Origin: Coprobacillaceae bacterium
Lineage (GTDB): Bacteria; Bacillota_I; Bacilli_A; Erysipelotrichales; Coprobacillaceae
Assembly (NCBI GenBank): GCA_963675515.1
Contig: OY776328.1
Coordinates: 1,680,001-1,712,000 of the forward strand
Length of the DNA stretch: 32,000 nucleotides
Reading direction: 5' to 3'
The position numbers were made by a program, and so were the translations under genes. Positions within the stretch are counted from its first letter, which is position 1. Each line of letters opens with the position of its first letter. The notes under the pieces are model-generated. The model ran no database searches and had not been told where the DNA came from. It saw only the letters and a list, made by a program, of their open reading frames with translations. Positions 2,101 to 25,488 of this stretch are shown here, one piece after another.

Positions 2101-2802
2101 ATGAATAAAAGACACATGATATTTACAGGAATGGTTTTCTCGCTGATCTTGCTTACAGTCAGCTCGTCAACGGCTCTGCTTGCTGATTCTTCGGGACCGG
2201 CCCAAAACATATTCACCTCGACTAGAAAAGTGGACATCCTGTTGCGTGAACCGGGATGGGATGGATACAGCTTTGATGATGATGGTTGGGAACACGGCTT
2301 GGGAACCAAAGACGACTCAACAAGTCTGGATCTGGGTTTCAACAAGGCGACAACTTACATGCCGGGTGACACAATCGTCAAGGATCCAAAGATCCAACTC
2401 GATCAGAGCAGTGAAGACTGTTATGTGGCAATGAAAGTCTCATTCCTGCTTAAGGATGCGACCGGTACATACATAAATGTAGATAAATCGGAACTTACAA
2501 GCACCCTGATTGATGATCTGGTGATCAGCTCCAACTGGCATCAGATTCCCGACAGTGAAACCCCGCCTGAAAACAAGTATGAGATCTATATTTTTGATGG
2601 CGCTGATGACATTGCGGACCTTCTTTCCACCGATGGCACATCGGGTACGGACGCACTGTTTAGCGAAATCAAGGTAAAGTTCAATATATATGAAGAAAAT
2701 CTCAAAGATTTTGAAATCAATGTGAATGCATATGCGATTCAGGGGACAAACCTGGATATCGGCGATGTTGATTCCACAATGCTTGAATTCATCGAAGATT
2801 AG
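2101..2802 (+). CDS. Secreted TasA-like paralogue, REPxWDGY subfamily (233 aa)
   Basis: ORF track 2092..2802. ATG 2101 follows AAGAGGTAAGGTG. N-terminus MNKRHMIFTGMVFSLILLTVSSSTALLADSSGPAQNIFTS is a SipW-type signal. Clear paralogue of 16595..17278: NIFTSTRKVDILLREPGWDGYSF vs NVFTSSRGIDIELREPAWDGYDF, YMPGDTIVKDPKI vs YLPGDTVPKDPTI, DCYVAMKV vs NTYVAMKL. Confidence 0.75.
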   Translation: MNKRHMIFTGMVFSLILLTVSSSTALLADSSGPAQNIFTSTRKVDILLREPGWDGYSFDDDGWEHGLGTKDDSTSLDLGFNKATTYMPGDTIVKDPKIQLDQSSEDCYVAMKVSFLLKDATGTYINVDKSELTSTLIDDLVISSNWHQIPDSETPPENKYEIYIFDGADDIADLLSTDGTSGTDALFSEIKVKFNIYEENLKDFEINVNAYAIQGTNLDIGDVDSTMLEFIED

Positions 2803-2836
2803 GATTTCAAAATCATAGAAAGGAGAATAGCTACAT

Positions 2837-5416
2837 ATGAAAATTAAAAACATCATAAAAATGGGTCTCGTGTTGTTTCTTACATTGGGCATCATATCCC
2901 TGCCAAATAACGTTGATGCCCTTACACAAGAAGAGCTGGATACAATTCACATGGATAAGACAGCTACATACAATGGGGATGGCACTTATACCATTAACCT
3001 GGAAACCTATGTCACTGGTGATATAACGGTCACATCTGAAGATGTGCCGGTTGACTTTATTCTGGTGTTGGACCAATCAGGGTCTATGGATTCGTATTTT
3101 GCCTCAGGCAAAACCCGTATGGAAGCTTTGAAGGATGCGGCACATGATTTCGTCGATTCGATCGATGCTTTGGATCGAACGACAGGTGATACAGTTTCCA
3201 TTGTGGGATTCGCAACTGATCCGGACTCCGTGTATGCAACCCCCGGAGGTGGAAGTTACCAAGTTACAGAAGCCTTTGATGGAAATACAGGGCCCAGCCC
3301 ATCAACATATCAGGATACTCCTGGTTGGCCTTACAATACCGTTATGGGTTGGAGCTATACAAATTTGGTCAGTAGGGTAGTCAAAGGAGTCGAAACCAAT
3401 AATTCGGATATCCATGACGCCATTGATTCACTTAAACCAGAAGGAGCTACTTCAGCTGATACTGGTATGGAAATTGCTAGACAGATATATAATGCAACTG
3501 CTTCAAATGGACACTTGAAGGTGATTTTATTCTTCACCGATGGTGTACCAACTACTGCAAGTTCTTTTAGTCCTACTGTTGCTAATGCTGCAATTACAGT
3601 TGCAAAGGAACTGAAAGATAATGGTGTAAAAATATTTACAGTCAAAACATCTAATGTTAATGACAATGATACAATCAATTACATGAAGGCTATGTCTTCA
3701 AATTATCCTTATGCGACCAGCTATACATCATTGGGAACTCAGGAAAGCAATGATTTTTATTATAATGTTGCTGATACTCTTGATATGCAAAATGTTTTTG
3801 AAACTGTTCAAAATTACGGAATTGTACAAAACTCGATTCTTTCGACTGATACGGAACTTGTCGATTACTGTTCGGACGTATTGACTGTTCCGGCCTTGGC
3901 AGATGTCCATGTGTATACCTATGCATATACCGGCAGCGGCACTTTCTCTTCCACAGGAGTGGAACTGACCAAAGGCGTCGATGTAACTGCAACAATCGAT
4001 TCGGTTGCAAAAACGATAACGGTCACTGGATTCGATTATGCGGCAAACTCCTGCATAGATGGCGATGGTACTATCCCGACTCAGGGTAACAAACTAGTTG
4101 TTTCATTCACTACGACTGATATACCTGGTTTTATCGGCGGAAACAACGTTGAAACCAACACTCCCGATTCGGCCTTGTATTATGAGGATGAGGAAATCAA
4201 ACCATTCCCCGAACCGACTGTCAATGTTCCTTTGGACTATGAATTCACAGCGAATGATCAGGCGATCTACATCACAAACAATCTTGAAGACGTCACGGCC
4301 TTCTTCGATGATGTATCAACATCAGGTATCCAATATCAGATTGACGGGGTCACCTATGACCTAGGAGAACATCGCAACGATTATGCGGACGTCACTTATC
4401 AGATATATGATGGAACCACCTTGATTGGTGAATATACAATACCGGCCGGTGGCACAACTGGAAGTTTCACATGGTATCCCGACGCGCTTGACACGTCTGG
4501 TTTGACAGGAACCCATGAGTATACAATCAAAGCTGTTGTGGAAACGCAAACGGCACTTCCAACCAGCACAGGCACTCCTGTCACAGCGCCGCTTGTAATT
4601 GAGGACACCGCAAAAGTGTTTGTATTCGTACCTCAGGTGACTACAAACGATGAGGTCATCTTCAAAGGTGAATCATTCACAGTGGATAACATAAATGAAA
4701 CAGTAAATTGGGTTTGCAATGATCCGGCTTATGTGCCAGGAGTTGACCCGGTTGTCCAGGGCACTGCTCCTACGCTGAGCTACAGTCTCGATGGCGGCAC
4801 CTCAAGTGTCATAACCACTCCAACAACCAAAGATACAAACGTGATCACATATAACGTGAGTGTATATGCGAATGGTAATGATGTGACTGCCAATCTTGCA
4901 ACCGGTTCGGATGTCCAGTTCAACGTATACATCGTTGAAGGAGAATTCCAGATAACCCAGATTATCGATGTCGAATACTCACAGATTGACATCTCGGCAC
5001 TACAGGGATTCGGCTATGAAATCCAGAAACTTGACGGAGGAGGCAATGTGGTTGAAACTTACAATGTCGCCCTTTATCCTCGCGAAGGATCAAGCGACTC
5101 GGATATAATTTCAGGCTTATCAATTGGAACGTATAGGGTTGTCAGTGATGACGCCTGGCTGGTAAGATACACCAATGCGCTTCAAAATCCGGACTCGGAT
5201 CCGATTTCACCTGATTCGATTATCGTTACATTAAGCAGAGATGATCTAAATTTTGTTGACATCCGCCAGGATGATATTGTCAATCTGGCAGCTATTGGCA
5301 TTACAATTACCAACACTGACGATGATGTGACTTTTGTAGCTACGAAGGTTCCTTCATACTGGCTGTCTGATTCAGGATATTCAAGAAATATCATAAATAA
5401 TCCTGTGTCTGAATAA
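2837..5416 (+). CDS. Large secreted von Willebrand factor A (vWA) domain protein, 859 aa, adhesin-like
   Basis: RBS AAAGGAGA precedes the ATG. Signal peptide MKIKNIIKMGLVLFLTLGIISLPNNVDA. MIDAS-type motif VDFILVLDQSGSM (DxSxS), with later ...FFTDG... typical of vWA. About 500 aa of T/V/D/Y-rich, beta-type C-terminal sequence. No LPXTG and no C-terminal TM segment. Confidence 0.8.
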   Translation: MKIKNIIKMGLVLFLTLGIISLPNNVDALTQEELDTIHMDKTATYNGDGTYTINLETYVTGDITVTSEDVPVDFILVLDQSGSMDSYFASGKTRMEALKDAAHDFVDSIDALDRTTGDTVSIVGFATDPDSVYATPGGGSYQVTEAFDGNTGPSPSTYQDTPGWPYNTVMGWSYTNLVSRVVKGVETNNSDIHDAIDSLKPEGATSADTGMEIARQIYNATASNGHLKVILFFTDGVPTTASSFSPTVANAAITVAKELKDNGVKIFTVKTSNVNDNDTINYMKAMSSNYPYATSYTSLGTQESNDFYYNVADTLDMQNVFETVQNYGIVQNSILSTDTELVDYCSDVLTVPALADVHVYTYAYTGSGTFSSTGVELTKGVDVTATIDSVAKTITVTGFDYAANSCIDGDGTIPTQGNKLVVSFTTTDIPGFIGGNNVETNTPDSALYYEDEEIKPFPEPTVNVPLDYEFTANDQAIYITNNLEDVTAFFDDVSTSGIQYQIDGVTYDLGEHRNDYADVTYQIYDGTTLIGEYTIPAGGTTGSFTWYPDALDTSGLTGTHEYTIKAVVETQTALPTSTGTPVTAPLVIEDTAKVFVFVPQVTTNDEVIFKGESFTVDNINETVNWVCNDPAYVPGVDPVVQGTAPTLSYSLDGGTSSVITTPTTKDTNVITYNVSVYANGNDVTANLATGSDVQFNVYIVEGEFQITQIIDVEYSQIDISALQGFGYEIQKLDGGGNVVETYNVALYPREGSSDSDIISGLSIGTYRVVSDDAWLVRYTNALQNPDSDPISPDSIIVTLSRDDLNFVDIRQDDIVNLAAIGITITNTDDDVTFVATKVPSYWLSDSGYSRNIINNPVSE

Positions 5417-8200: not shown

Positions 8201-9787
8201 CTAAACAATCAGCCTTTGTTTTCTATTCTTTTTATTGTGAAATTTCATAAGGTTGAACCCTAGAGCTACCAAATACAGCTCGATTTTGACACTTTTAGCA
8301 CCTCGTCGTCTCAAACGGGTATATTTTATGTCTTCTTTGATGACTCCGAAGGCTCCCTCAACTTGGATGCTTCTCTGCCTTTTCAGTTCCTTGCCAAACT
8401 CAGTGGAAAGATTTTTATCGACTTCACTGTGGAATTCTTCAAGAACCGAATTTCGTCGCAATTTCCTTTCAACCACCGATTTGGTGCACAGTGACATATT
8501 GGAACAGTCACTGCAGCCTTGGCATCGGTAATTGGCTGTTATCTGGATATACTTCCCTTTGGTTTCATAACTGTCATCTACGTACTGATCAAAGACATTG
8601 CCTTCAGGGCAAATTTTGTAGCCTTCCTCATTTTCTGGCCAGTTGATTGAGTTGTAGATCCTCTTCTTGAATTTGGAATCATGTTTCTTTGCGTACATAT
8701 TGTACTTCATGCTCAAATTCATCCCACTTTCCAGGCAGTAGAAATAATTTTCATAGCTTCCATAACCGGCATCGCCAACTGGCCACTTAGGAAGAAATCC
8801 GTATTTCTCCTTGTAGGACTTCATAAAGGGAATAAAGGTCTTCACGTCACCAGGATTGGGATAAACGTCTAGATGGACGATATATTCATCACTGACTCCT
8901 AGCTGAAGATTGTAGCCTGGCTTGAATACTCCGGTTTGGTTATAGTAGTCGTATTTCATGTTCATCATTGTGGCATCATGATCGGTTTTGGAATAGCTGT
9001 TCCTCTCACCACAAATCTCCAACTTCTCTTCGTATTCAAACAATTTGATGAAATACTCCAAGATTTTATCATAAGCCGACTGCACCTTGGTTTTCCGTTT
9101 ACCCTTGCCATATACAATCTCGATATTCTCACTGACCATGTGCTCCATGAGGTCATCAGCGATTTCTCCTACATAATCCGATTGGTAATTTGGTGCAGCC
9201 TGATAGTCGGTAAAACCAAGACCAGCCAAGTCCGATATCGCTTCAGTTATTTTTAGATAAAGCTTGTCCCGGTTGGTTAATACTGCTTTCTTCCAGACGA
9301 AACTTGTCTTTCTGGCATTGGCTTCTATTTTAGTTCCGTCGATATAAATAATCGAGGTATCTACTTCCTCGAGCTTGACTATTTCTTTTGTGATATCATA
9401 AAAAATATCTTCTATTTTCAAAGCTAAACGGTTATTGATAAAACGCTGAAAAGCCATATGAGATGGTCTTTCCTCGTTCGATAACCACATATACCTAATA
9501 TCAAATTTGCACAAATCCTCAAGGTCACGAAGACTGGGATTACCGTTCATAAACGCAAACAATAAAACTTGCAACATCATATCAGGGTCGTAGCCCTTGT
9601 TACCTCTTTGACAGTTATCTGAAAAATACTTTCTAGTGTCAATTCCTCTCATAATCTCTACGAATGATGTCACTGGATCGTCAATTGGTAAAATAATATC
9701 AATATCCAGTGGAAGTTTGAATTGAAATGCGCTATAATTACCACTGTACTTGGGGTAATTGGACTCCAACATTTCGATGTTTAACAT
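8201..9787 (-). CDS. IS1182-family (IS5-like DDE) transposase, 528 aa, apparently intact
   Basis: N-terminal region with ...GNKGYDPDMMLQVLLFAFMNG... Cys-rich stretch YKICPEGN...YRCQGCSDCSNMSLC. C-terminal ...QVEGAFGVIKEDIKYTRLRRRGAKSVKIELYLVALGFNLMKF, typical of this family. Confidence 0.9.
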   Translation of the reverse strand: MLNIEMLESNYPKYSGNYSAFQFKLPLDIDIILPIDDPVTSFVEIMRGIDTRKYFSDNCQRGNKGYDPDMMLQVLLFAFMNGNPSLRDLEDLCKFDIRYMWLSNEERPSHMAFQRFINNRLALKIEDIFYDITKEIVKLEEVDTSIIYIDGTKIEANARKTSFVWKKAVLTNRDKLYLKITEAISDLAGLGFTDYQAAPNYQSDYVGEIADDLMEHMVSENIEIVYGKGKRKTKVQSAYDKILEYFIKLFEYEEKLEICGERNSYSKTDHDATMMNMKYDYYNQTGVFKPGYNLQLGVSDEYIVHLDVYPNPGDVKTFIPFMKSYKEKYGFLPKWPVGDAGYGSYENYFYCLESGMNLSMKYNMYAKKHDSKFKKRIYNSINWPENEEGYKICPEGNVFDQYVDDSYETKGKYIQITANYRCQGCSDCSNMSLCTKSVVERKLRRNSVLEEFHSEVDKNLSTEFGKELKRQRSIQVEGAFGVIKEDIKYTRLRRRGAKSVKIELYLVALGFNLMKFHNKKNRKQRLIV

Positions 9788-14998: not shown

Positions 14999-15027
14999 TT
15001 GCCTTTGGGGCTTTTGGTGGATTTTTT
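14989..15027 (+). terminator. Rho-independent terminator of relA
   Basis: AATCCAC (14989-14995) / GTGGATT (15017-15023) followed by TTTTTT. Confidence 0.65.
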
Positions 15028-15202
15028 CATTGTATATAAGTGGTACTTATTTTATTATGTTGAATCTAGTGGGTTGATTTTTACCACCTTTAGTAGTAAC
15101 ATAATAGTATATATAGGACAATGATGTTGCTAATAGTCACTAATGATTAAAGACTATTAAAGTACATATTTTACACACTTATTATATTTGGGGAGTGATT
15201 TT

Positions 15203-16402
15203 ATGGAATATTCTTGTGTTTTACATGTCCAAGCCTTTGGTGAATTTCAAATCAGTAATGAGACAGGTCAGCTGAATCTGAGCATGCTTAAATCCAAACG
15301 ACTATCAAAACTGCTGTTGTATTTTGTGACCCATCACAGCACCATCATCCCTTCTTCGGATCTGTGCGATTACCTATGGGAAGAGAACGAGAGCTCCAAC
15401 CCGATCGGGGCGCTTAAAAACCTCGTCTACCGGTTGCGGACGGTAATGAAGCGGGTATGGCCCGATCATGATCTTATAATGACGGGATCGGGGACTTATT
15501 TCTGGAACTCGAATGTAAAACTAATTGTCGATTTCGAAGAATTCTACGAATTGGTCAGTTCGGTAAGTGATGAAATGGACGAAGAGTCGAAGATAAGTCG
15601 TTACAAAAGAGCTACGGAAATATATCAGGACCGGCTGTTTGCCCATTTTGATTATGATTCCTTGATAATGCAGAATTCGATGTATTATCACAATGTTTTT
15701 TTGAAAATGACCAAAGATTTCCTGAAGGTGCTTTACAACCAGAAACTTTATGATGAGCTTTATTTTTATTCCAACAATGCATTGACTCTTGACAATACAG
15801 AAGAGGATTTTTACCGTTATGAAATAATGGCACTGGGCCAAAATAATGAGTTTGAACTGGCCCGGGTCAAATATGAGACAGCCAAATATGTTCTTAATCA
15901 TGAGCTTGGGGTTTTGCCAAGCGATAAGCTGATCAAGACTTATGAACAGATTTTAAGCCAGTTTCTTCAGGCCAATGAATCAATCGACAAGGTCCAACAG
16001 GACATTGTTCCGCTGCAATCAAATAACGTTCTTGTATGTGATTACGGAGCATTTAAAAACCTATGCAATCTTGAGCTTCGGCTGGCGCAAAGACACTCGT
16101 TCGATTCGACTTTGCTTCTGGTCTCGGTTAATGTGATGAAACCGTTTGACGGCCATTCCAAGATCTTCCGGGATACCTTGAATAGGGGAATGGACCGTGT
16201 TGAAGATGTTTTGATTGATGCACTGCGCAACAGCGATTCGGTTTCCAAGGTCTCGCCCAATCAGTACAGCTGTCTTCTTAGCATGTGCAATATTGACGAT
16301 GCAACCTTGGTTATCGAGAGAATCGAGAAATATTTTTACCGCGGTCTGAAAAAAAACGACATCTACATAACTTGCAACAGTCAAAAACTTGGGTCTAACT
16401 GA
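15203..16402 (+). CDS. SARP-like transcriptional activator (OmpR-type wHTH + BTAD) fused to a degenerate GGDEF-like domain
   Basis: ORF track 15188..16402 starts at a TTG. ATG 15203 follows GGGGAG. The N-terminus LHVQAFGEFQI...SKLLLYFVTHH...SSDLCDYLWEE...NPIGALKNLVYRLRTVM fits the SARP/wHTH pattern. The middle helical BTAD-like region includes ...ALGQNNEFELARVKYETAKYVLNHELGVLPSDKLIKTYEQIL. The C-terminal ~105 aa follow the GGDEF-domain pattern (STLLLVSVNVMKPFDGHSK...ALRNSDSVSKVSPNQYSCLL...ATLVIERIEKYF), with GGDEF replaced by SPNQY and RxxD (RNSD) retained 5 residues upstream. Confidence 0.75.
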   Translation: MEYSCVLHVQAFGEFQISNETGQLNLSMLKSKRLSKLLLYFVTHHSTIIPSSDLCDYLWEENESSNPIGALKNLVYRLRTVMKRVWPDHDLIMTGSGTYFWNSNVKLIVDFEEFYELVSSVSDEMDEESKISRYKRATEIYQDRLFAHFDYDSLIMQNSMYYHNVFLKMTKDFLKVLYNQKLYDELYFYSNNALTLDNTEEDFYRYEIMALGQNNEFELARVKYETAKYVLNHELGVLPSDKLIKTYEQILSQFLQANESIDKVQQDIVPLQSNNVLVCDYGAFKNLCNLELRLAQRHSFDSTLLLVSVNVMKPFDGHSKIFRDTLNRGMDRVEDVLIDALRNSDSVSKVSPNQYSCLLSMCNIDDATLVIERIEKYFYRGLKKNDIYITCNSQKLGSN

Positions 16403-16416
16403 GCCAAGTTTTTTTG
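16383..16416 (+). terminator. Rho-independent terminator of the regulator gene
   Basis: AAAAACTTGG (16383-16392) / CCAAGTTTTT (16404-16413) plus further T residues. The stop codon lies in the loop. Confidence 0.75.
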
Positions 16417-16430
16417 TGGTTTTTCAATCT

Positions 16431-16463
16431 TGTGACTTCAGTGTGACAGGTAAATAATATTAT
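16431..16463 (+). promoter_or_regulatory. Direct-repeat operator plus -10 (site 2): TGTGACT-tcag-TGTGACA-N9-TATTAT
   Basis: Heptamers at 16431-16437 and 16442-16448, with TATTAT at 16458-16463. Spacings are identical to sites 1 and 3. Confidence 0.7.
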
Positions 16464-16594
16464 GTTATTGAAATTAGAGGTAAAGACAATAACTCAAGGC
16501 GAACACGAAAACCCGAAAATGTCTTACCATAATATCCGTATTATTTGTTACATAATCATGTTAGTTTACTATTAAGGAAAGGAAGAATGACAAC

Positions 16595-17278
16595 ATGAAG
16601 AAATTCACAAAGTATTTAATGATTTTTGCATTGGTTTTTGGTCTTACCCTGTCATTGACTATGGCTCTTTTGACTGATACCACATCATCGGCAACAAACG
16701 TTTTTACATCATCACGGGGAATCGACATTGAGTTAAGAGAACCGGCATGGGATGGATACGATTTTTCAGAAGCTTGGCCGGGCGGTACATCACCTAAATC
16801 AGCTGATGTAACCCTTGGTTACAACATAGCCAATGAGTACTTGCCAGGAGATACTGTGCCTAAAGATCCGACCATCAAAGCCATGACCGGAAGCGACAAC
16901 ACCTACGTGGCAATGAAATTGACCTACAAGGTTAACGATGTTGTAGTTCCTTATGCAACATTTGCGACATATCTTCGAGATGGCAGCATCGCATTTGACA
17001 CTGGAGCGGCAGTAGACGAATGGTCTAATGAATCGACAGTGCCTGCAGACAATGATTTCTTTGTTTTCAATTCTTATCTTGTAGCCGATTCAGCTCAAGC
17101 AACGACATCACCATTGTTCACCCAAGTGTTGATTTCCTTCGGATTGGTTCCTGATGGTTCAGGTAACTTACCAAAATTGGAAATAGATGCAACTGCTTAT
17201 GGTGTTCAAATATCATTGCCAGCTGGAACTGACAAGGCAACAGCTTTGAAAACCCTTGCCGGATACCCAGCGCCTTGA
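16595..17278 (+). CDS. Secreted TasA-like paralogue, REPxWDGY subfamily (227 aa)
   Basis: RBS GGAAAGGAAG. SipW-type signal MKKFTKYLMIFALVFGLTLSLTMALLTDTTSSATNVFTS. Paralogue of 2101..2802 (see that entry). Confidence 0.8.
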   Translation: MKKFTKYLMIFALVFGLTLSLTMALLTDTTSSATNVFTSSRGIDIELREPAWDGYDFSEAWPGGTSPKSADVTLGYNIANEYLPGDTVPKDPTIKAMTGSDNTYVAMKLTYKVNDVVVPYATFATYLRDGSIAFDTGAAVDEWSNESTVPADNDFFVFNSYLVADSAQATTSPLFTQVLISFGLVPDGSGNLPKLEIDATAYGVQISLPAGTDKATALKTLAGYPAP

Positions 17279-17333
17279 TATTAATTGATTAATTCAACGA
17301 TCACTAAACATAATTAAAAAAGGAGAAAATATT

Positions 17334-17984
17334 ATGAAATTGAACAAGAAAATTGCTGCAATTGTCACTACAGCAGCGATTGCACTCAGTGCCACTGTCG
17401 GATTCACGCTGGCATACTTCACTGACTACACCAAAACTGAAACCAACACAATCACAATGGGACATGTTGACATCGATTTAAGAGAAACTTCAGTTGCAGG
17501 ACCTGGCGTTAAGGCTGGTACGGCTACTGATGACGGTTACGATTACAATGATGTAATGCCTGGCGATGTCTATTCCAAACAGCCTGTAATTACAGTAATG
17601 GCTGGATCTGAAGATTGTTATGTCCGCGCACTGGTTACTCTTAAGACAATAGATACAGGCGGCGATGGGGTCATCTCTGAAGCTACTCTGTTGAGCTATT
17701 TGAATATTGAGACAACCGATTGGTTTATCGGTAGTTTGACAAGTAATCCTGATGGTTCAGAAAGTGCATATGTGTATTATAAGAACTCTTTGGCAGCTGG
17801 CGCAAACGTAACTGTATTCTCTACAGTATCATTCCCAAGCAGCTTGACCAACAGCAGCACAAACGATGATTACATAATAACTGTAAAGGCTGAAGCGATT
17901 CAAGCAGCTAATGTGACACCTACAACCAACCCAGGTGGCATGATCACTGGTTGGCCTGCAGCGGCAATCGAACAATATTCTTAA
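17334..17984 (+). CDS. Secreted TasA/camelysin-like protein with SipW-cognate signal peptide (216 aa)
   Basis: RBS AAAGGAGA. N-terminus ...ALSATVGFTLAYFTDYTKTETNTITMGHVDIDL is a close match to the SipW-cognate signal and mature N-terminus pattern. Also MPGDVYSKQPVITV...SEDCYVRALVTL and ...ITVKAEAIQAANV. Confidence 0.85.
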   Translation: MKLNKKIAAIVTTAAIALSATVGFTLAYFTDYTKTETNTITMGHVDIDLRETSVAGPGVKAGTATDDGYDYNDVMPGDVYSKQPVITVMAGSEDCYVRALVTLKTIDTGGDGVISEATLLSYLNIETTDWFIGSLTSNPDGSESAYVYYKNSLAAGANVTVFSTVSFPSSLTNSSTNDDYIITVKAEAIQAANVTPTTNPGGMITGWPAAAIEQYS

Positions 17985-17996
17985 TATGACAGCATG

Positions 17997-18042
17997 AAGG
18001 CATGTTCGTTAACGGATAGTGTTAACACAACATGCCTTTTTT
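17997..18042. terminator. Terminator hairpin between the convergent operons
   Basis: Perfect 10-bp stem AAGGCATGTT (17997-18006) / AACATGCCTT (18029-18038), with a T-run to 18042 on the + strand. The pilT stop codon abuts it at 18043. Confidence 0.75.
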
Positions 18043-19095
18043 CTATCCCAATTTCTGGGTGATATATTGGTTGTTCTTGCAGTACTTGATCACTGTTTCC
18101 CTGGATATGATACGGTCCTGGTAAAGTTGCAGCAGACTGTTGTCAAGGGTCACCATGTTTTGCCGGTCGCTTTCAATGATCGAGTCGATCTGGTGGATCT
18201 TTTTTTCTCTTATAAGGTTGCGGATGGCCGGATTGACAATCATGATTTCAAACACCGGAATGAGCTTGCCGGAAATATCGGGAACGAGATGCTGCGACAC
18301 GACCGCATTGAGGGTCAGTGAGAGCATCATCGCTATCTGCGGCTGCTCATTGGCTGGAAAGGCATCGATGATCCGGTTGATTGTATTGCTTGCGCCGATT
18401 GTATGGAGTGTGGAAAACACCAGGTGGCCGGTCTCGCTTGCGGTTATCGCAGTCTCGATAGTTTCATGGTCGCGCATCTCCCCAAGCAGGATGACATCGG
18501 GACACTGGCGCAGGCTGGCCCTCAGGGCGGTCAGATAACAGTTGGTGTCATTGCCGATCTCCCGCTGGGTGATTATCGATTTGTTGTGGACATGAAGATA
18601 CTCGATAGGGTCTTCAAGAGTGATGACATGACGGGCATGATTGTGGTTGATGTAGTCGATGATGCATGCCAGGGTTGTCGATTTGCCGCTTCCTGAAGGT
18701 CCGGTGAAAAGGATCAGCCCGTTGGTCTGGTCGCCTAGAGCAATCAGCTGTTCGGGAATGTTCAATTCCTGGAAATCCGGAAGCTTGAAGGCGATGATTC
18801 GGATCACGCAAGCCAGTGAACCCCGCTGTTTGAACATGCTCACCCGGAAGCGGGAAAGGTGGGCTATCGAGAAGGCGAAATCGTCATCGCCGTCATTGAA
18901 GAGGATATCGACATCGCGCTTGGCGATTTCGTAAATCTGGCTGATAAGCTGTTTGGTGTCTTCGGTGGTGAGTACATCATTGTTCAAGGGGCACAGTTGA
19001 TTGTCTTTCTTGAACTTGACTGGGATGTTGGCTTCGATAAAGATATCCGAAGCCTGCATGGTTATTGCCCGGTGCAGAATTGAAGTAATTTCCAT
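18043..19095 (-). CDS. pilT: PilT-family type IV filament ATPase (retraction-ATPase type), 350 aa
   Basis: ORF track 18043..19128. Start moved to ATG 19095 (AGGAGA 5 nt upstream). Walker A GPSGSGKSTT, ITLEDPIEY, LRQCPDVILLGEMRD, ETGHLVFSTLHT, and the PilT/PilU-specific motif AIRNLIRE (PAIRNLIREKKIHQI). There is no N-terminal extension of PilB/GspE type. Confidence 0.85.
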   Translation of the reverse strand: MEITSILHRAITMQASDIFIEANIPVKFKKDNQLCPLNNDVLTTEDTKQLISQIYEIAKRDVDILFNDGDDDFAFSIAHLSRFRVSMFKQRGSLACVIRIIAFKLPDFQELNIPEQLIALGDQTNGLILFTGPSGSGKSTTLACIIDYINHNHARHVITLEDPIEYLHVHNKSIITQREIGNDTNCYLTALRASLRQCPDVILLGEMRDHETIETAITASETGHLVFSTLHTIGASNTINRIIDAFPANEQPQIAMMLSLTLNAVVSQHLVPDISGKLIPVFEIMIVNPAIRNLIREKKIHQIDSIIESDRQNMVTLDNSLLQLYQDRIISRETVIKYCKNNQYITQKLG

Positions 19096-19096
19096 A

Positions 19097-19483
19097 TCAT
19101 TCTCCTGTGTAGACTGGAGCCAAGTCATCTAGCTGGTAATCCGAATTGTTTTGGACCTGCAAGGAGATGATTTGCTTGGCATTATAATCGTAAACCAATG
19201 TGACTGTCTGGCCATAGTCAATGACCTCCTGGAAAGTTATCACATTTGCTTCCATTTGAAAATCGTATTGTTCCTGAAGGGTTGCCAACGGAATTTCCCG
19301 GCTGTCGTTGATGAAACGGTTGATTATCGACCTGGCCTCAAGGTAGGTGAGGTTGTGGGCGAGGTTCTGGTCAATCAGGGTTTGGCTGGCCTTGGTCTGG
19401 ATGTATGAGTTGAATGTCAATGTGATCAATACCAGGATGATGATGATATTGAAAAGGCTTGTCAGCCCGATTCTAATCTTCAT
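19097..19483 (-). CDS. Pseudopilin-like small protein (128 aa, ComGG-sized)
   Basis: RBS GAGGTGG. N-terminus MKIRIG/LTSLFNIIIILVLITL is a short basic leader plus a hydrophobic helix. Gly at the -1-like position is retained, but no Glu occurs at +5. Confidence 0.6.
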   Translation of the reverse strand: MKIRIGLTSLFNIIIILVLITLTFNSYIQTKASQTLIDQNLAHNLTYLEARSIINRFINDSREIPLATLQEQYDFQMEANVITFQEVIDYGQTVTLVYDYNAKQIISLQVQNNSDYQLDDLAPVYTGE

Positions 19484-19841
19484 AAGCCACCTCGTAGTCA
19501 GTCGCGATGATCAGGTTGTCATATTTGTCGTAAACATCAAGATGGAATATCGGGAAATTGTTTTCAACTTTTACGCAATAATAATAATCGTCCGTGGTGT
19601 TTATATTGTTGCTGTCAAAAAGGATTAGCGAATCACTGGTTTGGTAGTAACCTTCAAGATCGCCTTGATGTTCTTGAAGGATTGCGACGATACTGTTGAG
19701 CTGGATGATTGCTTTGGCCTTGATCGTGTTGTGGTAATTGATGAGAGTTGTTTTCATCATGATCTGGATGACCAGCGCCAGGGCGATTGCGAAAACCAGA
19801 AGGTTGACACATAGCTCGAGCATGCTTATCTTATCTTTCAC
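19473..19841 (-). CDS. Pseudopilin-like small protein (122 aa, ComGE/GF-sized)
   Basis: GTG start overlapping the upstream stop (GTGA), with GGAGGG 6 nt upstream. N-terminus (M)KDK/ISMLELCVNLLVFAIALALV has a Glu at the +5-like position, but Lys replaces Gly at -1. Confidence 0.6.
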   Translation of the reverse strand: MKDKISMLELCVNLLVFAIALALVIQIMMKTTLINYHNTIKAKAIIQLNSIVAILQEHQGDLEGYYQTSDSLILFDSNNINTTDDYYYCVKVENNFPIFHLDVYDKYDNLIIATDYEVAYED

Positions 19842-20254
19842 GGCTTGCCCTCCAGGCTCAAGTAGTAGTTTTCGTTGATTACAAGCAGGCCATCAATGAG
19901 ATCCAGGTCCAGTTTTTCCATGGAACATATCTGGTCCCCATATTCCATATCGAATTCCCGGCCGGCCGGCAGATAAAGCTCGCATAGGTAACCATCGTTG
20001 TTGTACAGGTAGGTCACATATGAAGAACCATCTTCGAGTACAAGAATGTCCGGGGTATCATCTTTTTTTATTTCAACCGATTTGGCCCGCTTGATCTTTT
20101 CGTTTATGAAGCTGATCACAAACTGCTCATCTACAAGGGCATCTTGGGCTATGGCTGTCTTGTTTGTGATGTTTAGCACCAGGATGCAGATGGCGCCAAG
20201 GGTGAATATAAAGATGCCGGTAATGAGGTATGAAAACAAGTCGCTTTTATTCAT
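19838..20254 (-). CDS. Pseudopilin-like small protein (138 aa, ComGD-sized)
   Basis: Overlaps the upstream gene by 8 nt. N-terminus MNKSDLFSYLITGIFIFTLGAICILVL is a single N-terminal hydrophobic helix with no G/FTLxE motif. Confidence 0.55.
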   Translation of the reverse strand: MNKSDLFSYLITGIFIFTLGAICILVLNITNKTAIAQDALVDEQFVISFINEKIKRAKSVEIKKDDTPDILVLEDGSSYVTYLYNNDGYLCELYLPAGREFDMEYGDQICSMEKLDLDLIDGLLVINENYYLSLEGKP

Positions 20255-20531
20255 AGGCGAATACCGTCAAGTCAGGTATGATGTTTTCTCCAATCGGGAT
20301 CAAAAAAACCTGATATCTTGTCTTATCGAAGCTTAGGCCGTAATTTTCCTCAAGATATCCCAGTGATTCGGGATAACGCCCCTCATTGATGTAACAAAGC
20401 AGTATCTTGTCATTGATCGACTGCTCGAGTGCATGCAATGCGTTTTTTTGGCTGGTCTTATTGAACTGGTTGACAAATATGATTGCCAGGGCCAATGCAA
20501 TAATGACCAGCGACAATTTTACCATCTTCAT
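20247..20531 (-). CDS. ComGC/GspG-like major pseudopilin candidate with degenerate prepilin motif (94 aa)
   Basis: ATGA overlap with the upstream stop. MKMVK/LSLVIIALALAIIFVNQF aligns to ComGC MNEKG/FTLVEMLIVLFIISILL, but G-1 is K and E+5 is I. The globular part ...HALEQSINDKILLCYINEGRYPESLGYLEENYGL matches the ComGC/GspG pattern (...G.YP..L..L...GY). Confidence 0.65.
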   Translation of the reverse strand: MKMVKLSLVIIALALAIIFVNQFNKTSQKNALHALEQSINDKILLCYINEGRYPESLGYLEENYGLSFDKTRYQVFLIPIGENIIPDLTVFAYE

Positions 20532-21460
20532 AAGTCTGAAAGAATCGCGAACAGCGGCAATATCAATGAGAGCAGGATGATTGCCACAATGACGACAAAA
20601 CCGGTGCCAAAGTATAGTTCGAACTTGGCCAATGATTCATCCATCCTTGTATTGGCCTTCTGGCGATACTCGTCGAAAAGCATTTCGAGAACCTTTTCAT
20701 GGGTTCCGTTCTGGATGCTCATTTCCAACAAGGACAGCTCAAGAGGCTCGAGCCGGGAAGAAAACGCCTCGATCACGCCCGATTTGGACATGTTGGCTAT
20801 TCCAGCTGCCTGATCGAAAGAAACTCCGGCCTTTACCAGGGTGGAAACGGCAAAAAGCTCATTGGATGCCCGATTGAGAGCCTTTGCCTTTTTGAATATC
20901 CCAACCTTGTCTTGCCGGATCATTCCCAGCAACAAAAGCATACCAGATAGCACAATGATGATGAAGTAAGTGAGGTAATCATTGATGAAGTATCCCAGCT
21001 GAAGGCTTATCCTGGCAACACCGGTCAGCTGTGCTCCCATGCTTGCATAAAGGTCGTTGAACACCGGGAGAATCCTGGTAACCAGGATGGTCATTATGGC
21101 TATCATGACCAGGCTAATGCCAATGGGGAAATTCAACATCCTTTTCAATTTCCTGTTGCTTTGATCAAGTTGCTTGTAATAGTTTGTCAGGTGAAGAAAT
21201 ACTTCGTCAAGATTTCCCGAATGCAGGCCGGCTTTGACCAGGTCAAGATAAAGCTGGTCAAACAATCCGGTGCTTTCCAGGGCGGAAATGATGTCATTTT
21301 GTTCGAGCTGGGCGATTACCTGGTTCAACAGATACTTCATCCGCATTTGTGTGGTGTTTGTTTCAAGCAATCTAAGTCCCGCCAAGAAACTTTGGCCGCT
21401 GGTGGAAATCAGATACATTTGCTTTGAAAAATTTATGATTAGATCGTAATCGTTTCTCAT
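20528..21460 (-). CDS. PilC/ComGB/GspF-family platform membrane protein (short, about 310 aa)
   Basis: ORF track 20528..21472. I prefer ATG 21460 (GGAGG 5 nt upstream); ATG 21472 overlaps the upstream stop as TAATG and remains possible. Two GspF-like repeats (...LVKAGLHSGNLDEVF... and ...LVKAGVSFDQAAGI...) and three hydrophobic segments. Confidence 0.75.
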   Translation of the reverse strand: MRNDYDLIINFSKQMYLISTSGQSFLAGLRLLETNTTQMRMKYLLNQVIAQLEQNDIISALESTGLFDQLYLDLVKAGLHSGNLDEVFLHLTNYYKQLDQSNRKLKRMLNFPIGISLVMIAIMTILVTRILPVFNDLYASMGAQLTGVARISLQLGYFINDYLTYFIIIVLSGMLLLLGMIRQDKVGIFKKAKALNRASNELFAVSTLVKAGVSFDQAAGIANMSKSGVIEAFSSRLEPLELSLLEMSIQNGTHEKVLEMLFDEYRQKANTRMDESLAKFELYFGTGFVVIVAIILLSLILPLFAILSDL

Positions 21461-21471
21461 TGCCGCCTCCA

Positions 21472-22392
21472 TTAAAAGATGTATTTCAGCTCATAATTTT
21501 CGCTGTCGGTTGTGAATTCCTGGATTTTCTTGTTGCCTGGGTCTTGCGAGATGAAGGTGGGATCCATGATTTGCCATTTCTCGTTTTCAAAATAGATGAA
21601 ATTGTCGATCCAACCGGTCTGATCCGTATAGACACTGACCCAGGCATGATATGTGTCTTTGACATATCCGAATTCCAGCCGGGTCGGGATAGCCTGGGTG
21701 CGCAGCATCGCGACAAGCAATGACGCGTAATCGAAGCATATCCCTTTTTTGGATTGGTAGATAGAGTTTAGATCCGGAATATAATCGTAGGCGACACTTT
21801 TAGCCTTTTCATAGTCATAATCGTAGTTGGTTATAATGTAATCGAAGATTAGCTGGATCTTTTCCAGGGTTGACGACGCATTTGTGACCAGCTCGCTGGC
21901 AACATATACAACCTGGGTGTCCTTGTCGAAATTGACATACTGGTTGTTGTACAAGAAGGCATTGAATCCGTTTTCCTGCTCAACTTTGAAGCTGGTCTTG
22001 AATATCTTGCCATAGCGGTTGCCTTCGATATTTTCATAAACCGTGATCCCATAAGTTCCTGATGTCTCGACCAGATTGAAAAAGTCGATTTTTCCGGTCA
22101 GGTTGTATGTGTAGATGGCCCCTGAAGGCAGTGTCAGCTGGAGTTTGGGCCTGTCGTTGGTTCCGGTGTATTTCACTCCAAAATACCCTTTGACGACATT
22201 GGTCAGGTCTATTTCCACCGCATCGTTGCCTTGGGTTTTTCCTTCATTGAAGCTGGCAAGATAGAAAACCGGTTCGCTTTTCAAGGTGGCTTGATTGGAG
22301 GAAGAAGCGAGATTCAAAGGGGATGGTGTCTGGGCGTTGGTACCACATCCGCTCAAAAGCATGGCTGCGATGATCAGGAATTTGAATTTCAT
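21472..22392 (-). CDS. Lipoprotein with C-terminal transglutaminase-like (papain-fold Cys-His-Asp) domain
   Basis: ORF track 21472..22458. Start moved to ATG 22392 (AGAGGTG upstream). Lipobox MKFKFLIIAAMLLSGC. Transglutaminase core KKGICFDYASLLVAMLRTQAIPTRLEFGY...YHAWVSVY...GW...IMDPTF (Cys, His, Asp). Confidence 0.8.
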   Translation of the reverse strand: MKFKFLIIAAMLLSGCGTNAQTPSPLNLASSSNQATLKSEPVFYLASFNEGKTQGNDAVEIDLTNVVKGYFGVKYTGTNDRPKLQLTLPSGAIYTYNLTGKIDFFNLVETSGTYGITVYENIEGNRYGKIFKTSFKVEQENGFNAFLYNNQYVNFDKDTQVVYVASELVTNASSTLEKIQLIFDYIITNYDYDYEKAKSVAYDYIPDLNSIYQSKKGICFDYASLLVAMLRTQAIPTRLEFGYVKDTYHAWVSVYTDQTGWIDNFIYFENEKWQIMDPTFISQDPGNKKIQEFTTDSENYELKYIF

Positions 22393-22536
22393 CTGGATAT
22401 CACCTCTTATCGTTGAGCAAAGATCCATAAACCGGATTTTCAATTGCGGTTTGCTCACATATGGTAATTATACAAGATTTCCCCGTTTTTATAAAGGGTA
22501 ACAATTCATTTCCTTTAAAACAACAATTGATAGAGA

Positions 22537-22569
22537 TGTGACTGACATGTGACTGGTTAACGTTAAAAT
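22537..22569 (+). promoter_or_regulatory. Direct-repeat operator plus -10 (site 3): TGTGACT-gaca-TGTGACT-N9-TAAAAT
   Basis: Heptamers at 22537-22543 and 22548-22554, with TAAAAT at 22564-22569. It lies in the divergent intergenic region shared with the minus-strand operon. Confidence 0.7.
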
Positions 22570-22593
22570 ACAAGTGATATAGAGGTGAAAAAT

Positions 22594-23238
22594 ATGAACA
22601 AGAAGATAATAATAGGAATGATATTCATACTAGGAGTAGTTGGTTTTAGCGTTCGTGGCACCTACAGTGTCATTCAAAGCAGTTTTGAAACCCAGAAAGC
22701 TATCTACACCCCATATCTTGGCATAGATTTTGTCAATGGTGACGGTAGCACGATGTCTGACAATTTTTTGGAGAGTGAGGTGTATGGAATGCCGGGTGAT
22801 GTCATCGATGGCGGACTGGCGATCAAAAACACCGAAAATACGACAGCCTACGTCCGGGTGACGATTTACCGCTACTGGGCCGATGAAGACGGGACCAAAA
22901 ACACAACCGACCGGGATGATCCAAATTACCTCGATCCCGCCCAAATCCAGTTCACGATAGCGAACGGCTGGCTTGTTTTTGACGGTGATGAGTATTCCGA
23001 AGTCACATATGCGTATTACACCAGACCGCTGGATCCAGGAGAGTATGCTACGGTCATCGATTCGTACACTTATCTGGATGTAACCCAAAACAACAATCTT
23101 TACGCTGACAAGATCGTCCATCTCGAGTTCTTCGGTTATGGCGTTCAGACCTTTGATGCCAAGAACTCTTTCAAGGCTGAATGGGGCGTTGATGTTGAAT
23201 TTGACGCTGATGAGAACATTGTTTCAATCGGATTGTAG
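22594..23238 (+). CDS. Secreted TasA/camelysin-like protein (214 aa)
   Basis: ORF track 22585..23238 (GTG). ATG 22594 follows AGAGGTG. N-terminus MNKKIIIGMIFILGVVGFSVRGTYSVIQSSFETQKAIY is a divergent SipW-type signal. MPGDVIDGGLAIKNTENTTAYVRVTIY and ...HLEFFGYGVQTFDAKNSFKAEWGV parallel the other paralogues. Confidence 0.7.
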   Translation: MNKKIIIGMIFILGVVGFSVRGTYSVIQSSFETQKAIYTPYLGIDFVNGDGSTMSDNFLESEVYGMPGDVIDGGLAIKNTENTTAYVRVTIYRYWADEDGTKNTTDRDDPNYLDPAQIQFTIANGWLVFDGDEYSEVTYAYYTRPLDPGEYATVIDSYTYLDVTQNNNLYADKIVHLEFFGYGVQTFDAKNSFKAEWGVDVEFDADENIVSIGL

Positions 23239-23253
23239 AAAAGAGGGATGAAA

Positions 23254-23880
23254 ATGAAAAAACTGATAATTGGTTTGGCCATCACTCTTGTAGCTTTTCT
23301 GTCAATGAACAATGTGGCTGCAGCGGATGTGATCACCTATCAAGGTGATGCCAACAGATTCATAATGCTTGACGGTAATGCCCCGGATTTCGAAAACATG
23401 CTTCCAGGTGAATCAAGAACAGTCACTTTCAATCTGGTAAATGGCAGTGGCGGACAGATGCGTTTCTATATGTCAAGCGAGATTCTCGACAATATCGCAA
23501 ACAAAGGTGACGGGGATGCGGTGTACACATTCACCATCGCCGATGGGACAACACCGTTTTTTGAAACCGAAGTCGGAAATGATGAAGTGACCATCGGGTT
23601 GCAGTTTCTGACCAATGACAACAACATCCTGTTGGGGACTTTGAATGCCGGCGCATCAAAGACAATCAATGTCACCCTTTCACTGGACGGGGATTCGGCC
23701 AACAACGAATATCAAGGGCAAACCGGGGTAGTCAATTTCATATTCTCAGTCGAGCAGCCTTTGCCAAAGATTGTCAAAACCGGCGACGAATCGGTTTCAC
23801 CGCTTGTCTATGGTGGCTTGATCGTGGCAGCGGGATTAGTGCTGATACTGTACAAAAGGGGTGGTAAACATGAAAAGTAG
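23254..23880 (+). CDS. Secreted beta-sandwich-type protein with C-terminal sortase-like sorting signal (IVKTG + TM + basic tail)
   Basis: ORF track 23248..23880. ATG 23254 has better RBS spacing (AGAGGG). Classical signal ...SMNNVAAADV. C-terminus PLPKIVKTGDESVSPLVYGGLIVAAGLVLILYKRGGKHEK. Confidence 0.7.
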   Translation: MKKLIIGLAITLVAFLSMNNVAAADVITYQGDANRFIMLDGNAPDFENMLPGESRTVTFNLVNGSGGQMRFYMSSEILDNIANKGDGDAVYTFTIADGTTPFFETEVGNDEVTIGLQFLTNDNNILLGTLNAGASKTINVTLSLDGDSANNEYQGQTGVVNFIFSVEQPLPKIVKTGDESVSPLVYGGLIVAAGLVLILYKRGGKHEK

Positions 23881-24703
23881 ATCATTGAAAGTGATGATTG
23901 GCATCGTCGTGATGATGTTCTTTACCCTGTTGCCAGCCAATGCATTGCGTAGTTACGATATAACGTTCAAGACCGGTAGTCAGGGAAGCATCGCTTCCCA
24001 GGACCGGGTTGTTCTCAATCTGGAATATGGGGCAACTTTGGATCCGGATCTGATCCAGGCGGCCATCGATGTGAACGAAGGTTATTTCTTTACCGGGTTT
24101 TACCTTGATGTGCCTGAAACAGTGACCAGGGAAGACACCTTTGTCGCACAGTACCGCAAGATTATCGATTCGGTAACATACCAGATAAACTATCTCGATG
24201 AAAATGACAAACCTCTGGCAACGTCGGTTGTCAAGACAACCAATCTTAATGCTCCAGCAAGTGTCCTGGCCATGGAAATCCCGGATTACGCGGTCGATGC
24301 GGCAGTCAAAACCGAAACAATCACCCAGGATGGTATTCAAATCAGCTTCCATTACACATCGACCCTTGCCAGCTCGCCAGGTGGTGGAAGTTCAAGTTCC
24401 GGTAGTATTTCAACTTCAGTCGTTGTTGTGCCAGGTACCGGAAATCAAATAACTGTTGTTACCCCCGATGACGGAACAACAACCGATGACGACGGCACTA
24501 CAACCGATGATGGAACAACAACCGATGACGATGATGGAACTACAACCGATGACGATGGAACAATAATCGATGACGATGATGTGCCATTGACACCGGGCTT
24601 CTGGAATACAACCAGCGTCACAGCCGCTGCGGTAATAGCACTGTTGGCATCTGGAATCGTTCTCTGGCTGCTTGTTTTCAAGAAAAAACGTGGTAGCCGT
24701 TGA
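23870..24703 (+). CDS. Membrane-anchored adhesin-like protein (Listeria-Bacteroides-repeat-like + MucBP-like modules, acidic D/G/T repeat, C-terminal TM anchor)
   Basis: ORF track 23861..24703 (GTG). ATG 23870 follows AAGGGGTGG. YDITFKTGSQGSI...EGYFFTGFY resembles the Flg_new/List-Bact repeat. VTYQINYLDENDKPL...IQISFHYT resembles MucBP. The C-terminus is ...TSVTAAAVIALLASGIVLWLLVFKKKRGSR. Confidence 0.65.
   Translation: MKSRSLKVMIGIVVMMFFTLLPANALRSYDITFKTGSQGSIASQDRVVLNLEYGATLDPDLIQAAIDVNEGYFFTGFYLDVPETVTREDTFVAQYRKIIDSVTYQINYLDENDKPLATSVVKTTNLNAPASVLAMEIPDYAVDAAVKTETITQDGIQISFHYTSTLASSPGGGSSSSGSISTSVVVVPGTGNQITVVTPDDGTTTDDDGTTTDDGTTTDDDDGTTTDDDGTIIDDDDVPLTPGFWNTTSVTAAAVIALLASGIVLWLLVFKKKRGSR
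24467..24580 (+). repeat. In-frame imperfect tandem repeat, unit 18-24 nt (GAT GAC (GAY)n GGN ACW ACA ACC), encoding (D)nGTTT
   Basis: Five to six consecutive units read directly: gatgacggaacaacaacc / gatgacgacggcactacaacc / gatgatggaacaacaacc / gatgacgatgatggaactacaacc / gatgacgatggaacaataatc / gatgacgatgat. Confidence 0.85.
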
Positions 24704-25200
24704 TGGTGAAGCTCATCCATTTTTTAACCAATACAGTTATCGTCATTGTAGTCGCCTTTATGGCATTGTTGTATGTTCCAAGAATCATGGGAATCAGCCC
24801 TTATGTGGTGTTGTCGGGTTCGATGGAGCCTACTTACCATGTGGGCAGTCTGATTTTCGTAAACAAGAATTTTGATTCGATTGAAGTTGGTGATCCAATC
24901 ACCTTCCAAATATCCAGTTCAACTCTGGTAACCCACCGGGTTATTGAAGTGGACCAGGAGGCGATGCTCTACACGACCAAAGGCGATGCCAACAATACTG
25001 CCGATGGTTCCAAGGTGGCATATGACAATATTGTCGGGGTGCCAATGTTCACAATCCCATACCTGGGATATGTGGCGGTGTTCGCAATCAGTTTCAATGG
25101 CAAGATCATCCTGGGATCCGTGGTGGCTTTGATGATACTGCTTAGCTACCTGGCAGATATGTACAGGAAAGACCAAGAAAAAATGCCTACTCAACCCTGA
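24703..25200 (+). CDS. sipW: Signal peptidase I, ER/archaeal type (SipW-like, Ser-His)
   Basis: ORF track 24700..25200 (TTG). ATG 24703 overlaps the upstream TGA (TGATG). SPase boxes VLSGSMEPTY, LVTHRVIEV (His in place of the bacterial Lys box) and TKGDANNTADG. Contains an N-terminal and a C-terminal TM segment. Confidence 0.85.
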   Translation: MVKLIHFLTNTVIVIVVAFMALLYVPRIMGISPYVVLSGSMEPTYHVGSLIFVNKNFDSIEVGDPITFQISSSTLVTHRVIEVDQEAMLYTTKGDANNTADGSKVAYDNIVGVPMFTIPYLGYVAVFAISFNGKIILGSVVALMILLSYLADMYRKDQEKMPTQP

Positions 25201-25224
25201 ATGACAGTCGGGGTTGAGTTTTAC
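25189..25224 (+). terminator. Rho-independent terminator of the sipW operon
   Basis: ACTCAACCC (25189-25197) / GGGTTGAGT (25211-25219) followed by TTTTA. The stem begins inside the last sipW codons. Confidence 0.75.
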
Positions 25225-25245
25225 TATCGCGGATAGTTATTTCTC

Positions 25246-25274
25246 TTGATTTTTGACGCTTCATTTTATATAAT
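25246..25274 (+). promoter_or_regulatory. Sigma-A-type promoter of the hisS-aspS leader
   Basis: TTGATT (25246-25251), 17-nt spacer, TATAAT (25269-25274). Confidence 0.65.
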
Positions 25275-25280
25275 GTGGTT

Positions 25281-25488
25281 AATCTAGGGAACGGGATTAA
25301 GCAGGAAGAAGATTGCAGAGACAATATGGCTGGTGAAAATATTGATTTGACGTCTGCGGGACACCCGGGAAGAGTTACTTTGAATCGAGTAGAAGTAAAC
25401 GTTGGTCGCGTTAAGACAGAGTGCGTGTGAATCACACGAATTAAGGTGGTACCGCGTTTTTGACGTCCTTATTTTAAGGGCGTTTTTT
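25281..25488 (+). ncRNA. T-box riboswitch leader of hisS-aspS
   Basis: AGAGA bulge motif (25316-25320) and distal-loop-like GGCTGGTGAAA. Conserved T-box sequence AATTAAGGTGGTACCGCG (25439-25456). Terminator ACGTCCTT-loop-AAGGGCGT plus TTTTTT (25463-25488). Confidence 0.85.

Follow-up and report, generated by a model that had tools for sequence, protein, structure and literature searches.

What does a bacterial transcription factor sense when it ends in a domain resembling a diguanylate cyclase that can no longer work, and which genes does it control? The question is raised by a gene at 15203-16402 in a 32,000-nt stretch of a Coprobacillaceae bacterium genome (assembly GCA_963675515.1, contig OY776328.1, positions 1,680,001 to 1,712,000; the window hereafter). 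Positions given below are those of the window, and features lie on its forward (+) strand unless stated otherwise. The gene encodes a regulator of 399 aa, followed by a stop codon, in which a SARP module is joined to a degenerate GGDEF domain. The best explanation overall is that the protein is an activator of fibre genes responding to cyclic diguanylate (c-di-GMP), a reading for which we consider the case evenly balanced. Slightly below that we place the fuller proposal of a new class of c-di-GMP-responsive transcription factor, namely a SARP activator in which a c-di-GMP dimer would cross-link minimal GGDEF remnants that keep only the inhibitory site (I-site).

Domain architecture of the regulator

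The reading frame opens with an ATG that has GGGGAG just 5′ of it, and homologues share the same MEY start. An OmpR-type winged helix-turn-helix (wHTH; 15293-15487, residues 31-95) was assigned from Pfam Trans_reg_C, Foldseek and conservation: Trans_reg_C gives E=5e-5 and 23.7 bits on the window protein, under the cut-off of 26.2, and is matched in 25/25 aligned family members, among which the recognition region NPIGALKNLVYRLR is almost invariant. After the wHTH sits a bacterial transcriptional activator domain (BTAD; 15527-15955, residues 109-251), for which PF03704 scores 41.6 bits against a cut-off of 22.1 with the whole profile covered, alongside matches to AfsR and EmbR. A linker predicted to be flexible follows (15956-16027, residues 252-275), in which the predicted local distance difference test (pLDDT) falls below 50 at residues 256-260 and 269-273. 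In the full-length AlphaFold model (pLDDT 87.3) the first 250 residues resemble AfsR and EmbR and the tail resembles GGDEF domains. Foldseek with this model returned AfsR (8k60) at 1e-10 and EmbR at 3e-9, and a profile of the full family matches both AfsR and many solved GGDEF domains. Pfam, profile and Foldseek thus agree on the SARP (wHTH plus BTAD) N-terminus named in the original prediction, and by domain content, fold and operator design the regulator is a SARP.

The remaining residues, 276-399 (16028-16399), form a truncated, catalytically dead GGDEF-fold domain with the order alpha1-beta1-alpha2-beta2-beta3-alpha3-beta4. Its homology is visible only with family profiles and not with the window protein by itself, for which a single-sequence search reached solved cyclase 3ign at E=0.1 only, Pfam GGDEF (PF00990) no match at E<=10 and NCBIfam likewise none. 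Taken alone, these results would allow a chance resemblance, or a decaying remnant that is no longer under selection. In a first alignment of 25 homologues (27-78% identity), however, PF00990 is matched at E<=1 by 21, and three of the six that were checked singly pass its curated cut-off of 23.8 bits (P0012 at 27.7, P0025 at 25.5 and P0008 at 23.9), with matches that span positions 55-120 only of the 161 in the Pfam profile. A profile of the C-terminal domain finds 24 solved GGDEF-domain sequences, headed by DgcR (6zxm) at E=4.7e-10, where the family's LRkgDvvsrysesQy stands opposite fRksDiisrfggeeF. The model of residues 270-399 has a pLDDT of 91.2 and a pTM of 0.84, and all 50 of its top 50 PDB matches in Foldseek are GGDEF domains, with a TMq of about 0.7 (0.66-0.75 for most) and a root-mean-square deviation of about 3 Å. 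Domain length is constant and specific residues are invariant across the roughly 1,600 clusters of the family at 50% identity. Chance or decay is refuted by these results, and we give it a negligible probability.

By fold and by profile, the C-terminal domain is a GGDEF homologue and not a diguanylate cyclase. The fold search, which had been named as the check on the GGDEF pattern seen by eye, and the profile match both bear that pattern out. What had been overlooked is that the domain is cut short: the fold ends past beta4 (strand 387-395 of 399), and about the last 40 Pfam positions, including the alpha4-beta5 region, are absent.

Residues kept and lost in the GGDEF-fold domain

Conservation was followed in two sets, 80 non-redundant regulators from fetched genome and metagenome loci, and 144 sequences made up of 143 representatives of 50%-identity clusters plus the window protein. 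Identities in the two sets are 25-30%, and paired counts below are given in this order. The RxxD motif of the primary I-site, RNSD (R342 and D345; 16226-16237), aligns with the RxxD of DgcR, a T. maritima diguanylate cyclase, 3ign and PleD, and is nearly invariant, with R342 conserved in 80/80 and 140/144 sequences and D345 in 79/80 and 142/144. Between D345 and S351 stand five residues, as is canonical for RxxD and signature. A third primary I-site residue, R373 (16319-16321), lies 18 residues past the signature in the alignments and is kept in 74/80 (with Lys in four more) and 138/144. On helix alpha1, R297 (16091-16093) aligns with the secondary I-site Arg, in a register taken from the 3ign and DgcR alignments, and is found in 78/80 and 139/144; R293, one helical turn ahead of it, is found in 76/80 and 133/144. 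By comparison with the PleD sequence, we take R373 and R297 to be the probable counterparts of PleD R390 and R313. The original prediction had rightly placed RNSD, the five-residue spacing and the signature position, and had noticed the retained RxxD; the similarly conserved R373 and R297 were not part of it.

The catalytic side tells the opposite story. Where GG[DE]EF is expected the protein has SPNQY (S351-Y355; 16253-16267), and the family consensus at this place is S-x-[STN]-Q-[YF], with S351 in 69/80 and Q354 in 79/80 and 142/144; no canonical GG[DE]EF occurs among the 80 and 144 sequences. The metal-binding Asp of beta1 (PleD D327) is replaced in the alignment by S308 (16124-16126), a column that holds Thr or Ser in 74/80 and 141/144 sequences and Asp in 0 and 1. 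The proposed equivalent of the DxD motif, VNV, was one register off, as the alignments place S308-V309-N310 there. Columns of the guanine-binding Asn and Asp on alpha2 (N335 and D344) are variable or gapped, and the C-terminal phosphate-binding region is absent from the domain. Because the metal Asp, the GGDEF signature and the C-terminal part are all lost, catalysis is not expected, and with these losses the domain cannot be a cyclase. The predicted loss of activity is in this way upheld on three counts, SPNQY, Ser/Thr for the metal Asp and a missing C-terminal third. The domain would then descend from a diguanylate cyclase that gave up what catalysis needs and kept the I-site alone. That the I-site is kept while the active site (A-site) is gone speaks, more strongly than any other in silico evidence, for continued binding of the cyclase product by the domain, and by sequence criteria the regulator fits the definition of an I-site receptor.

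A predicted SARP-type operator ahead of fibre operons

The window has exactly three copies of TGTGACW-N4-TGTGACW, starting at 1363, 16431 and 22537, each on the forward strand, between genes and 5′ of one of three fibre operons, and each with a –10-like hexamer 9 nt past the second heptad. The predicted box at 16431-16463 reads TGTGACT-N4-TGTGACA with TATTAT as –10 and precedes a TasA-like operon. Its counterpart at 22537-22569 (TGTGACT-N4-TGTGACT, –10 TAAAAT) is conserved in two related loci (L009 and L010), and the box at 1363-1395 (TGTGACT-N4-TGTGACA, –10 TAGTAT) lies about 14 kb upstream of the regulator. Boxes were then counted in 84 non-redundant related loci (1.36 Mb) and compared with shuffled sequence. 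Exact boxes number 21 on the strand of the regulator and none on the other (shuffle mean about 0), and with at most one mismatch the counts are 56 versus 5 (shuffle means 0.65 and 0.45). At 49/64 sites a hexamer matching TATAAT in at least five of six positions stands exactly 9 nt downstream. Genes that follow the boxes in relatives encode TasA-like proteins, surface proteins of 1000-1400 aa and small conserved proteins; the regulator gene itself has a box in front of it in three loci.

The predicted box is 18 bp long and conserved across dozens of genera. Its heptads recur with an 11-bp period on the same face of the DNA, in place of a –35 element and at a fixed distance from the –10. This layout is the promoter design of SARPs, and the near-invariant recognition region of the wHTH fits a near-invariant box. 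The regulator is therefore strongly supported as the predicted activator of the TGTGACW promoters, as had been proposed, with box counts against shuffles and –10 spacing as the evidence. A good –10 with heptads instead of a –35 suggests that activation would proceed by recruitment of RNA polymerase.

c-di-GMP as candidate ligand and the proposed mechanism

c-di-GMP receptors are known among degenerate GGDEF domains with a retained RxxD, PopA being one example (review PMC12564702). Around the regulator, a jackhmmer search of all open reading frames found bona fide GGDEF, GGDEF-EAL or HD-GYP(-GGDEF) genes within 10 kb in 18 of the 84 non-redundant loci. In Thomasclavelia spiroformis (L039, 2465-11029) three such genes follow the regulator homologue within 10 kb, one for a GGDEF-EAL protein, one for a membrane GGDEF cyclase and one for a REC-HD-GYP-GGDEF protein, and c-di-GMP genes lie near it also in Massilimicrobiota, Longibaculum and Erysipelotrichaceae metagenome-assembled genomes (MAGs). 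The presence of these genes in such relatives indicates that the order to which the source genome belongs does use c-di-GMP. We judge it an even call that c-di-GMP is the ligand of the C-terminal domain, given the I-site residues and these neighbours.

Several observations weigh against this ligand. The 18/84 is a raw count that comes without a genome-wide baseline, the 32-kb window holds no diguanylate cyclase, and Rfam scans of the window and 13 related loci found no c-di-GMP riboswitch (T-box leaders and one tRNA only). A second conserved cluster, C279, Y281, F284, T/S308, S351 and Q354, lies on the side of the former active site and is not explained by an I-site model; C279 (16037-16039) alone is conserved in 140/144 sequences. 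What the arginine patch binds could also be a different anionic ligand or a partner protein. Finally, 50/88 loci encode next to the regulator small proteins with a common domain of about 55 aa (F.V.Ik.tQn.tWQG.i.W...k..FRS.LElI.LiDsA; ‘WQG’ hereafter), which are possibly the real input of the regulator. A redox switch formed by C279 and C362 was set aside, as C362 is present in only 68/144 sequences.

These small proteins, about 60 aa and about 145 aa long in the forms that accompany the regulator, lend weight to a different reading, in which the dead GGDEF domain has no ligand and is a dimerisation or partner-docking module whose Arg/Asp patch is a protein-protein interface. The partner would be a second protomer, the BTAD (autoinhibition) or the ‘WQG’ proteins, and the input a protein or the expression level of the regulator. 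The conserved surface outside the I-site would suit such an interface, and SARPs act as tandem dimers in any case. We nevertheless regard docking as unlikely: the clade of the window is without ‘WQG’ proteins and yet keeps all I-site residues, chance reuse of three primary c-di-GMP contacts plus the secondary Arg as an interface is improbable, and loss of RxxD is usual in degenerate GGDEF domains without c-di-GMP binding.

Less probable still is that another nucleotide is sensed, be it c-di-AMP, cGAMP, pGpG, GTP or (p)ppGpp. Bacillota rely heavily on c-di-AMP, and in the window the regulator gene is directly downstream of relA; the Arg/Asp I-site is, however, a guanine-specific pocket, and the recurrent neighbours are enzymes of c-di-GMP and not of c-di-AMP. 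Binding of (p)ppGpp by GGDEF domains is possible, and D327, E370, N335, D344, K332 and Mg2+ have roles at the A-site in the binding of (p)ppGpp and GTP (bioRxiv 10.1101/2025.08.22.671821). The A-site contacts for both ligands are all missing in the regulator, and adjacency to relA is confined to the clade of the window (3/88 loci), where it follows from the fibre island having been inserted between relA and hisS. Sensing of (p)ppGpp, which the relA neighbour and a PleD-ppGpp structure had brought to mind, is unlikely because A-site contacts are absent and the relA linkage is clade-specific, and sensing of GTP at the A-site is unlikely for the first of these reasons.

For the c-di-GMP-responsive SARP activator, we propose the following mechanism. 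Two copies of the regulator would bind the tandem heptads of TGTGACW-N4-TGTGACW, which replace the –35 and lie 9 nt from the –10, and once bound would recruit RNA polymerase to at least three operons for TasA-like, SipW-processed fibre proteins and adhesins. c-di-GMP would bind the I-site formed by R342-x-x-D345 and R373 together with R293 and R297 on helix alpha1. By analogy with inhibited PleD and WspR dimers, an intercalated c-di-GMP dimer may connect two protomers, bound by the primary site of the first and by the alpha1 arginines of the second. Since a flexible linker carries the GGDEF domain, a connection of this kind could favour cooperative occupancy of both heptads, and the fibre genes would be switched on at high c-di-GMP. 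DNA binding, the activating direction, c-di-GMP as ligand and ligand-driven dimerisation are the steps that we infer.

The fibre locus and its neighbourhood

The regulator gene is the first of a lower-GC island of about 10 kb between apt-relA and T-box-hisS-aspS. Over the island (about 15000-25300) GC is mostly 0.38-0.44, rising to about 0.50 over the T2SSE gene (18-19 kb) and in the adjoining relA, and the setting suggests an insertion into a conserved string of housekeeping genes. An inverted repeat (ACTTGG...CCAAGT) with a run of T behind it spans 16384-16418 and overlaps the regulator stop codon. It could be a terminator, which a terminator scan did not call because of the 11-nt loop.

Behind the first box of the island, a predicted target operon at 16595-17984 encodes two TasA/camelysin-like proteins with SipW-type signal peptides. 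Another at 22585-25200 encodes TasA-like proteins of 217 aa and 210 aa, a 280-aa protein with a weak MucBP match and a SipW-type signal peptidase. A third (1423-5416) holds genes for two TasA-like secreted proteins and an 859-aa VWA-domain protein; with its box at 1363 and some 14 kb between it and the regulator, it indicates that the predicted regulon reaches beyond the island. TasA-like and SipW-type genes beside the regulator thus agree with the fibre-locus context that had been described. On the reverse (–) strand, 18043-22458 is occupied by a pilus-like secretion operon composed of a T2SSE ATPase, two small proteins, DUF4860, T2SSF and a transglutaminase-like protein. In many genomes it is closely linked both to TasA/SipW genes and to the regulator. 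We found no TGTGACW box for this operon in its own orientation, including the intergenic region 22459-22584, and saw no prepilin peptidase in the island.

Two further features of the window were noted. A T-box leader (Rfam RF00230, 119 bits) at 25278-25473 on the forward strand stands 5′ of hisS. A DDE transposase gene (DDE_Tnp_1_6/DUF772) at 8201-9787 on the reverse strand lies between genes for a nitroreductase and recJ, where a relative with 70% identity (L001) has two small genes.

Distribution of the family

Relatives of the regulator were found in 118 species-level genomes of Erysipelotrichaceae/Coprobacillaceae, Lachnospiraceae, Oscillospiraceae, Clostridiaceae and others. They form 1,602 clusters at 50% identity (E<=1e-30), of which the best 150 are mostly proteins of about 400 aa matched over nearly their full length. 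Several Lachnospiraceae and Eubacterium MAGs carry two paralogues on different contigs (L044/L058, L054/L061 and L065/L071), a sign that the family has expanded within genomes. The NCBI name of a 91%-identical orthologue is only ‘BTAD domain-containing putative transcriptional regulator’. The original prediction had called the architecture unusual, and it is undescribed and unannotated, yet the word overstates the matter, as the family is both large and uniform and is spread through gut and anaerobic Bacillota.

By tblastn, the T2SSE/T2SSF/transglutaminase cluster lies beside the regulator in 26-29 of 88 fetched loci and the SipW/TasA-like cluster in about 20, counts that underestimate the linkage owing to sequence divergence. 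Since the same clusters stand beside regulators of only about 30% identity, the linkage is old. The ‘WQG’ proteins exist in a single-domain form of about 60 aa and a two-domain form of about 145-165 aa, and their genes overlap the stop codon of the regulator or follow directly behind a TGTGACW box of their own; examples are found in L004 (11210-11641 and 11706-11900), L006 (11200-11637), L055 (11303-11791) and L082 (from about 11699). A Pfam scan of these proteins gave no match. They may serve the regulator as partner or as feedback factor. In the window they are absent, and its clade may have lost them or may encode them elsewhere.

Comparison with known systems

In the literature searched we found no description of a BTAD/SARP-GGDEF fusion, or of a transcription factor with a GGDEF I-site as its sensor; the architecture and its predicted regulon are new to that literature, and the proposed mechanism is plausible. 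If the c-di-GMP reading holds, a new class of transcription factor would join the c-di-GMP effectors, one in which a DNA-binding protein has taken over the feedback site of an enzyme as its sensor and in which a SARP works outside actinomycete secondary metabolism. In gut Clostridia and Erysipelotrichia, c-di-GMP would also act directly, through a protein, on genes for TasA-like fibres and adhesins, by way of the conserved TGTGACW box. To our knowledge, the control of adhesion and matrix in these gut anaerobes is essentially unknown, and the 18-bp box would offer a testable regulon in abundant and little-studied Lachnospiraceae, Erysipelotrichaceae and Oscillospiraceae. The annotation of well over 1000 proteins now listed just as ‘BTAD domain-containing’ would be corrected.

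Like SARPs of the AfsR, EmbR and ActII-ORF4 type, the regulator combines a wHTH with a BTAD, in the folds of AfsR (8k60, 8hvr) and EmbR (2fez). It shares with them a tandem direct-repeat operator of 11-bp period that overlaps the –35 and keeps a constant, short distance to the –10, and a C-terminal sensor added to the SARP core (FHA in EmbR, NB-ARC/TPR in AfsR). It differs in its hosts, which are Bacillota (Erysipelotrichales, Lachnospirales and Oscillospirales) whereas those of SARPs are actinomycetes, in its heptad, TGTGACW, and in a predicted regulon of TasA-like fibres and adhesins rather than antibiotic clusters. Its candidate sensor, moreover, is a degenerate GGDEF domain.

With receptors of the PopA/PelD type, the domain has in common the loss of GG[DE]EF and of metal ligands, the retention of RxxD five residues upstream and of a downstream Arg, and a predicted role in controlling the production of matrix, fibres or adhesion. 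Those receptors act after transcription, through localisation, proteolysis or a synthase, whereas the regulator carries its domain fused to a DNA-binding module; the domain also stops after beta4, and its binding of c-di-GMP is a prediction. YdaK of B. subtilis and PssE of Listeria are likewise c-di-GMP receptors that use the I-site of a degenerate GGDEF domain.

Another point of comparison is BldD of Streptomyces, a repressor with an unrelated C-terminal domain that carries an RxD-X8-RxxD motif. Oligomeric c-di-GMP is reported to bridge two BldD protomers via Arg/Asp motifs and thereby to enable DNA binding (PMC4151990). The same logic is proposed here for the regulator, with the differences that its ligand site would be the inherited I-site of a cyclase and that it is a predicted activator.

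The predicted targets, in turn, recall the sipW-tasA operon of B. subtilis and sipW-bsaA operons, which share with the window TasA/camelysin-like proteins, SipW-type signal peptides and a dedicated SipW-like peptidase. sipW-bsaA occurs in C. perfringens, and for sipW-tasA and sipW-bsaA control lies with SinR/SinI or a two-component system. In contrast, the fibre genes of the window stand under a predicted SARP box and are linked to a T2SSE/T2SSF pilus-like cluster.

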